Of a stretch of 64,000 nucleotides of DNA, positions 8,049-10,514 are shown in pieces. The stretch is taken from assembly GCA_025360005.1 (NCBI GenBank), contig JANYDA010000057.1, positions 15,065-79,064 of the forward strand. The letters run 5' to 3'. The first letter of the stretch is position 1, and each line of letters opens with the position of its first letter. The stretch is from Fibrobacteria bacterium (GTDB lineage: Bacteria; Fibrobacterota; Fibrobacteria; UBA11236). A program made the translations under genes and the position numbers. The notes below the pieces were generated by a model, which saw nothing but the letters and a program-made list of their open reading frames with translations, made no database searches and was not told where the DNA came from.

Positions 8049-8210
8049 TCAGAACAAAGCGTAGATGAAGGGAGCGATGACGCCCGATTGCCCCGCGATG
8101 ATGAGCAGGCCCATCAATAACAGCACGACGATGATGGGCGTGAGCCACCAGGCTTTGCTCACCTTCAGGAATTGCCAAACGTCCGCCGCGAAACTTCGAT
8201 TCTTGCCCAT
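8049..8210 (-). CDS. Small membrane protein, SxtK/DUF5989-like
   Basis: Unlisted 53-aa ORF: MGKNRSFAADVWQFLKVSKAWWLTPIIVVLLLMGLLIIAGQSGVIAPFIYALF. The WWL.PII..LLL...APFIY.LF pattern matches the small protein typically encoded next to NodU/CmcH carbamoyltransferases; lies immediately downstream of the carbamoyltransferase. Confidence 0.55.
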   Translation of the reverse strand: MGKNRSFAADVWQFLKVSKAWWLTPIIVVLLLMGLLIIAGQSGVIAPFIYALF

Positions 8211-8221
8211 TGCCTGCTCCG

Positions 8222-10039
8222 TCAGTCCGTAGCCGCGGACTCGCTGTCCCAGATATCCCGCGGATTATCCTTCCGCCGCACCAGATAGTCGCCGATGATA
8301 AGGCAATCGATGCCGGTCCCCATCATGCAGCGATAGGCGTCCGCGGGCGAGCACACGATGGGTTCGCCGCGGATGTTGAAGGATGTATTGACCAGCATGG
8401 GTATCCCCGAAAGCGTTCCGAATCCCTTGATGAGATCATAATATAGCGGATTCGCCTCCCGCCGCACGGTCTGAACGCGGCCGGTTCCGTCCACGTGGGT
8501 GACGGCGGGCAGGCGCGCTCGCCAATTTTCCCGGATAGGATAGACCATGAGCATGAAATCCGCGGCCGCCGGGATGGCTCGGTCGCATTGGAAATATTCC
8601 TCCGCATCCTCCGCGCATACCGAAGGCGCAAAGGGACGGAAGGCTTCGCGGTGCTTGACCTTCTCATTGAGGATGGCCTGCATGTCCGGGCGGCCGGGAT
8701 GGGCCAGGATGCTGCGCGCGCCCAGGGCTCGGGGGCCCCATTCCATGGCCCCTTGGAACCACCCGACCACTTCACCCGCGTTAAGCAGGCGCGCGGCCTG
8801 GGAGATCAGATCGGCGCGATCCGCGAAGCGCCGGTGCAGGATGCCTTTTCCGGCCAGGAAATTCCCGATCGCTTCGGAACCGTATTGCGGCCCCAGGTAG
8901 GCGTGGGTCAACCGGTATGCCCGGGATTTGCCGAGCACGCAGCAATGGGCGAACAGGGCCGCGCCCATGCTGCTGCCCGCGTCGCCGGCATTGGGTTGGA
9001 TCCAAAGGTCGGTGAAACCGGTTTGGGAAAGGATGCGGCCGTTGATGACGCTGTTGAGGGCCACGCCTCCGGATAGCGCCACATTGCCGCAGCCCGTGAT
9101 CCTGCGGGCATGGCGCAGGATGGCCATCACCACGTCCTCGGTGATCATTTGCAGCGCCGCGGCGATGTCCTTGTGGCGCGGAAGCAATTCCTCTTCGGCC
9201 TCGCGCACGGGGCCGTCCAGCAGTTGCGACAGGCGCGCGCCCGGCATGCGATCGCTATGCTGGAAGGTGAAATAGGAAAGATCCAACGCATAGCTGCCGT
9301 CCGGCTTGATATCGATCACGCGCTTCAATTTGGCATAGTAGGGATTGCCATCCCGGTCCATGCGCCCGTAAGGACTCAGCCCCATCACCTTGTATTCCGA
9401 ATTGTTCACCGAAAAACCCAGGTAGGCCGTGAGGGAAGAGTAGAGTAAACCCAGCGAGTGGGGGAAGCGGATGTCCTGGTAAAGTTCCACGGAGGAGCCG
9501 CGGCCGCGGCCATAGGCCGTGGTGGTCCATTCCCCTACGCCGTCCACGGTCACGATGGCGGCCTCCTCGAAAGGGCTGGGCAGGAAGGCGCCGGCGGCAT
9601 GGGATAAATGATGATCTGCATATACAACGTCGCCCCGGTAGCCGAGGCGTTTCTTCAAAAGCGAACGGACGCGGATTTTCTCGGACAGCCAGCCGGGCAT
9701 GGCCATCTGGAACGTCTTGAAGCCGCGCGGAAAGCCCTCCAGATGCTGGCTGAGGATGCGCTCAAATTTCCGGAAAGGCTTTTCATAAAAGGCCGCCAAT
9801 TCCACCTGATCTATGCCGATGCCCTGGCTTTCCAAGCACCATCGGATAGCGGAGAGCGGGAAAGAAGCGTCATGTTTGCGGCGCGAGAACCGTTCCTCTT
9901 CGGCCGCGGCCACCACCATGCCGTCCTTCAGCAGCGTGGCGGCGGCATCGTGGTAATGGCAACTGATCCCCAGGATATACCTGGGCCCGGAAGGGCCAGG
10001 CTCACAAGCGGTAGGCTCAGAAGGGGCGATAATAGGCAT
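8222..10039 (-). CDS. NodU/CmcH family carbamoyltransferase
   Basis: 605 aa; YILGISCHYHDAAATLLKDG...ADHHLSHAAGAF...VTVDGVGEW...NTSFNIRGEPIV motifs diagnostic of O-carbamoyltransferases. Confidence 0.9.
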   Translation of the reverse strand: MPIIAPSEPTACEPGPSGPRYILGISCHYHDAAATLLKDGMVVAAAEEERFSRRKHDASFPLSAIRWCLESQGIGIDQVELAAFYEKPFRKFERILSQHLEGFPRGFKTFQMAMPGWLSEKIRVRSLLKKRLGYRGDVVYADHHLSHAAGAFLPSPFEEAAIVTVDGVGEWTTTAYGRGRGSSVELYQDIRFPHSLGLLYSSLTAYLGFSVNNSEYKVMGLSPYGRMDRDGNPYYAKLKRVIDIKPDGSYALDLSYFTFQHSDRMPGARLSQLLDGPVREAEEELLPRHKDIAAALQMITEDVVMAILRHARRITGCGNVALSGGVALNSVINGRILSQTGFTDLWIQPNAGDAGSSMGAALFAHCCVLGKSRAYRLTHAYLGPQYGSEAIGNFLAGKGILHRRFADRADLISQAARLLNAGEVVGWFQGAMEWGPRALGARSILAHPGRPDMQAILNEKVKHREAFRPFAPSVCAEDAEEYFQCDRAIPAAADFMLMVYPIRENWRARLPAVTHVDGTGRVQTVRREANPLYYDLIKGFGTLSGIPMLVNTSFNIRGEPIVCSPADAYRCMMGTGIDCLIIGDYLVRRKDNPRDIWDSESAATD

Positions 10040-10514
10040 CCGCTTCCCTCTTTGCGGATTCGAGATCCCGCCAATAGCTGTCTGGATTGCCGTCCGGATG
10101 GCCGTCGGAACGGGCCGCTTCGGCAGCGGGTTTTTTTCCGCCCTGCTTGCGGACGAACATGGAAGTGAGGCCCACGCCCAGGAGATAGGCGATGGACAGG
10201 AAGATGAAGTTGTTGAAAGCGGCGGTACCCTTGAAGAATAACAGCAACCCGTCCAGCCATGCGCCGCCGAATCGGCGGAGGAAGCCCTCTTTTGGGGACG
10301 GCTTGGGGAAGGATGTTTGCTTGAGCCACCGTCGGACCAGATGCCCGGCGCCGCTGAGCAGGATGGCGGCGGCGGCGTAAGGGAAAAGATTGGAAAAGCC
10401 GGGTCCCAGCCGCATCGGGCGCGTTGCGACGGAGAGAAGAACGGCGAAACCGGCCCATCCCACCGCGAATCCCATGGCCTTGGCGAAGGCGGCGGGAGAA
10501 AAAAGCCTGCTCAT
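10017..10514 (-). CDS. SxtJ-like membrane protein (putative carbamoyltransferase-associated)
   Basis: Start chosen at MSRLFSPAAF; 3–4 TM segments; position immediately upstream of the carbamoyltransferase mirrors the sxtJ-sxtI-sxtK gene order. Confidence 0.45.
   Translation of the reverse strand: MSRLFSPAAFAKAMGFAVGWAGFAVLLSVATRPMRLGPGFSNLFPYAAAAILLSGAGHLVRRWLKQTSFPKPSPKEGFLRRFGGAWLDGLLLFFKGTAAFNNFIFLSIAYLLGVGLTSMFVRKQGGKKPAAEAARSDGHPDGNPDSYWRDLESAKREADAYYRPF

Follow-up and report, generated by a model that had tools for sequence, protein, structure and literature searches.

Organization of the locus

Three consecutive genes occupy the minus strand between positions 10514 and 8049 of the window, as we call the whole 64,000-nucleotide stretch of Fibrobacteria DNA (contig JANYDA010000057.1) that was analysed. 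Read in that direction, they encode a membrane protein of 165 amino acids (aa), here called the J-like protein, a carbamoyltransferase of 605 aa and a DUF5989 protein of 53 aa (Table 1). A sequence-only reading of the same DNA had proposed these open reading frames (ORFs) as an SxtJ-like, carbamoyltransferase and SxtK-like module embedded in a glycan locus, and all three are indeed present on the minus strand at 10017-10514, 8222-10039 and 8049-8210.

Table 1. Coordinates of the trio and of its sequence features in the window.
Feature	Position	Strand	Basis
J-like gene (165-aa integral membrane protein, divergent SxtJ-like, fusion of N-half and C-half)	10017..10514	-	Homologue lengths, public gene calls
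N-half, residues 1-78, two predicted transmembrane helices	10281..10514	-	Separate ~65-aa ORF in ~70 of 80 related loci
C-half, residues 79-165, amphipathic and hydrophobic helix, tail SYWRDL...ADAYYRPF	10017..10280	-	hhalign against SxtJ
605-aa class III (TobZ/NodU/CmcH-type) O-carbamoyltransferase	8222..10039	-	Pfam, solved-structure matches, residues
53-aa single-pass membrane protein, DUF5989 (SxtK family)	8049..8210	-	PF19451
Overlap of J-like stop and enzyme start, 23 nt (possible translational coupling)	10017..10039	-	Read from sequence
Spacer between enzyme and DUF5989 genes, 11 nt	8211..8221	-	Read from sequence
Promoter-like hexamers TTGCCA-18-TATACT	10522..10551	-	Consensus scan

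The trio forms a compact operon: the first two genes share 23 nt, only 11 nt lie between the last two, and the flanking genes are a class IV aminotransferase gene that starts divergently at 10692 and a convergent YdjC gene that ends at 8023. The overlap, which recurs in three relatives (loci L081, L092 and L093), and the short spacer point to translational coupling. Ahead of the enzyme ATG lies the Shine-Dalgarno-like sequence GAGGGA (10045-10050), and GGAG (8217-8220) is found 6 nt upstream of the DUF5989 ATG. We are highly confident of the identities of the three genes and of their operon structure. The ATG of the J-like gene at 10514 has no Shine-Dalgarno motif, and the promoter-like hexamers end 8 nt before it, such that the transcript may be leaderless; this is a weak hint, because the consensus scan found one such site against 0.8 expected by chance. 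On the plus strand, ORFs that overlap the enzyme gene were treated as artefacts of the high GC content.

Gene order compared with the saxitoxin and canonical trios

The saxitoxin cluster (sxt) likewise combines a class III O-carbamoyltransferase, SxtI (~610 aa), with a DUF5989 protein, SxtK (~54 aa), in co-directional and tightly linked genes, and its SxtJ is a multi-pass membrane protein of ~134 aa that shares a C-terminal SYW...YFRQY module with the J-like protein. Unlike in sxt, the J-like protein fails the Pfam model of SxtJ (PF19588), its N-half shows no detectable similarity to that of SxtJ, and the surroundings are a glycan locus instead of an alkaloid pathway.

The sequence-only reading also held that the gene order mirrors sxtJ-sxtI-sxtK, which turned out to be wrong, because the usual bacterial order, as in sxtI-J-K, is enzyme, SxtJ, DUF5989. 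In sxt the order is I-J-K-L, since SxtI, SxtJ, SxtK and SxtL carry the consecutive accessions ABI75099-102. The same succession, with a PF19588 SxtJ protein of 133-139 aa in the middle, was found in seven of the eight contigs of DUF5989 hits in other phyla from which we took the canonical SxtJ sequences; the remaining one holds an orphan DUF5989 gene. These canonical trios come from metagenome-assembled genomes (MAGs) of Pyrinomonadaceae, Planctomycetaceae and Thermoanaerobaculales and from four metagenome contigs. They contain the same three families as the window; they differ in that SxtJ stands between the enzyme and DUF5989 and passes or nearly passes the Pfam model, whereas here the J-like gene lies upstream of the enzyme gene. 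In one of them (L085:1955-3574) the carbamoyltransferase is called as three fragments next to intact SxtJ and DUF5989 genes, which reflects either a pseudogene or an assembly error.

The carbamoyltransferase

By its domains and residues, the 605-aa protein is firmly identified as a class III O-carbamoyltransferase with a Kae1-like N-terminal and a YrdC-like C-terminal domain, which bears out the NodU/CmcH-type assignment of the sequence-only reading. The Pfam scan returned Carbam_trans_N (PF02543, E 8e-71) and Carbam_trans_C (PF16861, E 1e-72), and solved structures match over the full length of the protein, with 7xb6 first (E 4e-100), followed by NovN, GdmN and TobZ (E 3e-73). In the class III mechanism described for GdmN, the YrdC-like domain uses carbamoyl phosphate and ATP to form carbamoyl-AMP, and the Kae1-like domain, with iron bound by H133, H137, D156 and D333 and with H27 as general base, moves the carbamoyl group to a hydroxyl (PMC9633730). 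All five residues are kept in the phmmer alignment, in which H143, H147, D166 and D353 of the window enzyme are the predicted iron ligands and H30 is the predicted general base. The motif GPRALGARS was found as well.

TobZ, GdmN and NovN have the same Kae1-like plus YrdC-like architecture, act on soluble antibiotics and have no small membrane partner described in the literature surveyed; GdmN and NovN carry an extra C-terminal dimerisation domain that the window enzyme lacks. NodU, the Nod-factor O-carbamoyltransferase, belongs to the same family and acts on a sugar hydroxyl. The window enzyme is not NodU itself, because its match to the NCBIfam NodU model (NF041651, E 5.6e-42) reaches 144.2 bits, far under the equivalog cut-off of 1000 bits.

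A segment of ~30 residues, FPxGFKTFxxAMPxWLxEKxR (residues ~100-130, about 9650-9740 on the minus strand), is common to all ten partner-bearing enzymes compared, those of the canonical trios among them. It is missing from two partner-less viral relatives (L094 and L098), poorly conserved in GdmN and 7xb6, and falls around the region that aligns with the acceptor-pocket helix (helix 1) of GdmN. The segment is a possible partner- or membrane-contact element. The viral contigs served as a negative control: they hold only ~30%-identical relatives of the enzyme, with neither small partner found alongside.

The window enzyme is 63-83% identical to its Fibrobacteria relatives and 58-65% identical to those of DPANN archaea, candidate phyla radiation (CPR) bacteria and a few other bacteria, against only 45-48% for three canonical-trio enzymes (L083, L084 and L086). 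This distribution of identities suggests that the whole module was transferred between bacteria and archaea.

The DUF5989 protein

The 53-aa ORF, which the sequence-only reading had matched to the tiny DUF5989/SxtK-type proteins, is a clear member of this family by its profile match: the hidden Markov model (HMM) PF19451 hits it at E 3.7e-21 and 75.4 bits (cut-off 27), over profile positions 2-49 of 49. Hydropathy shows one hydrophobic span. We found 748 homologues, and PF19451 was assigned to all of them among the matches listed. Public gene calls on identical contigs already include the ORF with the PF19451 label, and our literature search found no paper naming DUF5989.

Some loci of the DPANN type contain two DUF5989 genes (L042:6964-7128 and 8034-8219; L046:6870-7037 and 7995-8165; L032:6923-7126 and 9461-9622). 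In L042 and L046 one copy follows a membrane-anchored SGNH/GDSL gene and the other an S-adenosylmethionine (SAM) methyltransferase gene, from which it appears that DUF5989 may have partners beyond the carbamoyltransferase. The orphan DUF5989 gene mentioned above (L090:1583-1792) is flanked by a poly(A) polymerase-family gene and crcB, with no carbamoyltransferase within the 5.8 kb covered; the contig ends ~1.6 kb upstream of it.

The J-like protein and its relationship with SxtJ

The longest ORF for the J-like gene reaches 10631 (204 aa). This version was rejected because of the homologue lengths and of the promoter-like site inside it; the alignment of 28 close homologues begins at the ATG at 10514, which is also the start given by public gene calls. 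Fibrobacteria MAGs are the source of the named homologues, which measure 124-201 aa, most of them about 155-180. In a HMMER search of 1.84 billion representative proteins, the family profile found only 212 relatives (clusters at 50% identity), which fall into three size classes: ~80 aa with the C-half only, ~65-80 aa with the N-half only, and 140-190 aa with both halves. Neither Pfam nor NCBIfam gave a match for the 165-aa protein or for its 28 close homologues. The J-like profile also matched 13 and 7 repeated stretches of two large proteins, P0164 (708 aa) and P0199 (1196 aa), respectively, probably through low-complexity or repeat similarity.

Consistent with the three or four transmembrane segments proposed in the sequence-only reading, hydropathy and AlphaFold give three long helices. 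The AlphaFold model (mean pLDDT, the predicted local distance difference test score, 76.6) was built on alignment A3, described below, and has helices at residues 7-31 and 44-66, a third helix of 47 residues at 78-124, and a tail, 125-165, that is mostly coil (pLDDT about 53) and bears the conserved motif. Loop 61-97 is strongly basic and so are the residues past 122. A re-entrant hairpin at residues 98-122, considered because both flanks are basic, was discarded since the model shows one continuous helix there. With 165 aa, these helices and a SYW tail, the protein resembles in shape the canonical SxtJ, which has ~130-140 aa, three or four helices and a SYW...YFRQ[YF] end.

The name 'SxtJ-like' was upheld by profile-profile comparison for the C-terminal half and failed the Pfam check that the sequence-only reading had suggested. 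PF19588 (gathering threshold 24.4 bits) matched neither the window protein (E up to 1), nor any of 28 close homologues (E up to 10), nor any of 31 distant fused relatives (E up to 1; the scan took in 32 long forms), nor virtual fusions of the N- and C-halves that are split in other genomes. One split C-half protein gave a sub-threshold match of 17.3 bits in the same register. A search of a 5.8-billion-protein set with the C-half profile listed only DPANN-like proteins of ~80 aa and no SxtJ sequences. By the Pfam criterion the 165-aa protein is therefore outside PF19588, and the position of its gene also differs from that of SxtJ.

For the profile comparisons we used a narrow Fibrobacteria alignment (A1), one of the C-half family (A2), one of diverse full-length sequences (A3) and one of seven canonical PF19588 SxtJ proteins (A5). 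Broader alignments were needed because A1 gave only 11% probability in hhalign against four SxtJ proteins. With A2 against A5 the probability rose to 97.2% (E 3.7e-11, 77 columns), pairing window residues 82-165 with SxtJ residues 62-138 up to both C-termini, and with A3 against A5 it was 96.4% (E 1.2e-9). In addition, an HMM of four canonical SxtJ proteins finds the ~83-aa ORFs immediately preceding the enzyme gene in at least 40 of 80 loci with close enzyme relatives (E down to 1e-8). The C-terminal motif is SYW(x10-12)YFRQY in canonical SxtJ and SYW(x10-12)YYR[QP]F in the window family, in which the window protein itself ends in SYWRDL...YYRPF. The N-half has no similarity to the SxtJ N-terminus (hhalign 10.8%, out of register), and both hold two hydrophobic helices. 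From these comparisons, we regard the C-terminal core of the 165-aa protein as homologous to SxtJ, by a remote homology confined to the C-half.

Arrangement of the module in related loci

The 80 loci come from Fibrobacteria, DPANN archaea, CPR and a few other bacteria and were analysed with our own ORF and HMM searches. An ~83-aa homologue of the C-half abuts the enzyme gene in 72 of them, and a two-helix homologue of the N-half, ~65 aa long, lies just upstream of the C-half in 70; jackhmmer ties these ~65-aa ORFs to the fused Fibrobacteria proteins. Both halves form one ORF in only four loci, all of them from Fibrobacteria and window-like. Since the halves are usually separate genes in the relatives, the window protein is best read as a fusion of two modules; alternatively, the separate genes came from the splitting of a fused one.

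The small downstream ORF is conserved too, as the sequence-only reading required: DUF5989 is encoded on the enzyme's strand in 71 of the 80 loci, directly downstream of the enzyme gene in 27, farther along with other genes in between in 35, and on its upstream side in 9. The arrangement of the trio is far from chance.

The split modules of DPANN and CPR contain the closest relatives of the enzyme outside Fibrobacteria and, as in the window, have the J-like genes upstream of the enzyme gene and the same C-terminal motif. Their order is N-half ORF, C-half ORF, enzyme, an optional SGNH gene and DUF5989, whereas in the window the halves are fused. A SGNH/GDSL gene is often placed ahead of DUF5989 in these loci.

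Glycan setting

The sequence-only reading placed the trio in a glycan locus, and the annotated neighbours agree. The genes around it encode GT2 and GT28-like glycosyltransferases, a Wzx-like flippase, a DegT aminotransferase, a GNAT acetyltransferase, three SAM methyltransferases, YdjC, DUF2079 and PMT_2 proteins, a UDP-sugar dehydrogenase and an epimerase. Two more Fibrobacteria contigs, with J-like proteins 51-62% identical to that of the window, carry the trio amid the same kinds of glycan genes.

Among the 143 ORFs counted as nearest neighbours in the 80 loci, the largest group is that of GDSL/SGNH proteins (29, of which 12 are of the AlgX type), followed by methyltransferases (13), NDP-sugar epimerases/dehydratases (7), GT1/GT4 glycosyltransferases (7), class IV aminotransferases (6) and ornithine/aspartate carbamoyltransferases (OTCase, 5). 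The SGNH/GDSL proteins (for example L042:5745-6980, L025:5745-6947 and L091:4161-5216) have an N-terminal hydrophobic segment in all four full-length cases inspected. Their position parallels that of sxtL behind sxtK, and a GDSL gene also comes next in the canonical trio of L091. No SxtL-like SGNH homologue was found in the window. In five of the 80 loci an OTCase gene stands closest to the enzyme gene, a hint of some local connection with carbamoyl phosphate metabolism.

Pfam matched none of five long ORFs situated within or close to the glycan locus: 2988-4535 (+), 17053-18225 (-), 18231-18893 (-), 19939-21810 (+) and 24164-25507 (-). Some of them may be spurious in a sequence of 61% GC. The only RNA gene detected in the window by ARAGORN and Rfam is a tRNA-Pro (TGG) at 47508-47585 (+).

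Proposed function and alternative explanations

We propose that the trio is a rearranged form of the enzyme-SxtJ-DUF5989 trio, which is widespread and best known from sxtI-J-K; in this form the J-like protein has come to lie ahead of the enzyme and two modules have become fused. The enzyme would be a cytoplasmic class III O-carbamoyltransferase, whose YrdC-like half would make carbamoyl-AMP from carbamoyl phosphate and ATP and whose Kae1-like half, with its iron site and histidine base, would hand the carbamoyl group to a hydroxyl. The two small membrane proteins would anchor this soluble enzyme to the membrane's inner face, where it would O-carbamoylate, ahead of export, a sugar in a lipid-linked glycan that the surrounding genes produce. 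The sequence-only reading had likewise suggested O-carbamoylation of a sugar and a possible membrane-adaptor role for the small proteins. Taken whole, operon variant and membrane-held enzyme together, this is the explanation that we consider rather probable; for the mechanism by itself, a carbamoyltransferase complex at the membrane that modifies a lipid-linked sugar from the local glycan pathway, we see the chances as evenly balanced. The identities of the genes, the catalytic residues, the homology, the synteny and the conserved glycan context are shown by the sequence comparisons; complex formation, tethering to the membrane, the acceptor and the topology of the conserved tails are the parts that we infer.

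In favour of this proposal, Fibrobacteria, DPANN archaea and CPR bacteria all preserve the module, and the saxitoxin papers also assume that SxtI works together with SxtJ and SxtK. Those published between 2009 and 2026 report no experiments on SxtJ and SxtK and either count them as unknown or assume that they help SxtI. A suomilide cluster also keeps sxtJ, sxtK and sxtL together.

Several points weigh against it. The window protein fails PF19588, and the narrow Fibrobacteria profile scored poorly against SxtJ, as described above. No experiment or structure in the literature surveyed shows SxtJ or SxtK bound to the enzyme, and some reviews call the two proteins merely 'regulatory' or 'unknown'. 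The topology is also a difficulty, as the tethering model requires a conserved tail that faces the cytoplasm. If the basic loop 61-97 is cytoplasmic, the three AlphaFold helices put the tail outside the cell; canonical SxtJ, by contrast, apparently has four transmembrane helices and the tail inside, and its stretch equivalent to residues 78-97 is hydrophobic enough for the fourth. Finally, most canonical trios sit in housekeeping, non-glycan neighbourhoods, and so the acceptor need not come from the neighbouring genes.

This last point leads to the alternative that survives best, in which the trio would be a self-contained unit carbamoylating a general component of the envelope or membrane, a lipid or another common acceptor, and its position in a glycan locus would not define the substrate. 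The neighbours of the seven canonical trios are unrelated genes (for example those of RF-1, a DEAD-box helicase, M16 peptidases, AdoHcyase and glutamine synthetase), and the module occurs in a widely differing set of organisms that includes DPANN archaea, CPR bacteria, Acidobacteria and Planctomycetes. We regard this alternative as unlikely, however, in view of the glycan context kept across divergent Fibrobacteria and of the glycan genes that dominate the nearest neighbours of the window-type clade.

An improbable but more elaborate possibility is a relay, by analogy with the AlgI/J/X and PatA/B O-acetylation systems: the enzyme would activate the carbamoyl group, the small membrane proteins would pass it, or the substrate, across the membrane, and an extracytoplasmic SGNH/GDSL protein (SxtL-like, AlgX-like) would complete or edit the modification. 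The outward tail of a three-helix J-like protein would suit such a relay, as would the membrane-anchored SGNH/GDSL genes, the commonest neighbours in the 80 loci and often followed by their own DUF5989 copy; sxtL after sxtK and the GDSL gene after the L091 trio fit as well. Yet no SGNH partner stands beside the trio in the window or in the Fibrobacteria relatives, the small proteins, at 53 and about 80 aa, are rather short to form a conduit, and carbamoyl-AMP chemistry offers no known covalent carrier.

To a similarly low degree we credit the idea that the small proteins, instead of being targeting subunits, serve as regulators, as stability factors or as accessories in the export of the carbamoylated product or in immunity to it. 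One review does tabulate sxtJ and sxtK as 'regulatory', and biochemical data on SxtJ and SxtK are absent from the literature surveyed. Tight translational coupling speaks against it, as does the fact that the small proteins accompany one enzyme clade almost everywhere in two domains of life, and neither small protein significantly matches any Pfam regulatory or transporter family.

It is very improbable that the 165-aa protein is a lineage-specific membrane protein unrelated to SxtJ, its profile match arising from transmembrane composition: the absence of PF19588 matches in 60 family members and in the virtual fusions, and the N-half without SxtJ similarity, would fit this, but the hhalign match reaches the C-terminus and takes in the non-membrane SYW...Y[YF]RQ[FY] motif, the canonical SxtJ HMM picks exactly the ORFs that abut the enzyme, and the one sub-threshold PF19588 match is in register.

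Implications for the SxtJ and DUF5989 families

The carbamoyltransferase, the J-like protein and DUF5989, with the AlgX-type SGNH protein where present, might constitute an ancient system of bacteria and archaea that decorates surface glycans across the membrane. This broader view, built on analogy, we hold to be decidedly unlikely. Were it true, the small proteins would couple carbamoyl-AMP chemistry in the cytoplasm to an acceptor outside it, in the manner of the AlgI/J/X or PatA/B relays, and SxtJ, SxtK and SxtL of the saxitoxin clusters would be a recruited remnant of it.

SxtJ and SxtK already had no listed function in the 2009 papers on the sxt cluster, and their help to SxtI was only assumed up to 2026. 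For SxtJ the comparison outlines a conserved core, which consists of the C-terminal helix and the SYW...YYRQF tail and persists as a stand-alone protein of ~83 aa. The branch to which the window protein belongs (212 clusters at 50% identity, with no PF19588 match in the roughly 60 members scanned) accompanies carbamoyltransferases in Fibrobacteria, DPANN archaea and CPR bacteria, and the glycan-modification neighbours of this branch, often with an SxtL-like SGNH protein, point to membrane-linked sugars as the original substrates. The locus gives concrete constructs and hypotheses on the role of the small proteins, and it suggests that the carbamoylation of surface glycans is more widespread than current annotation indicates.

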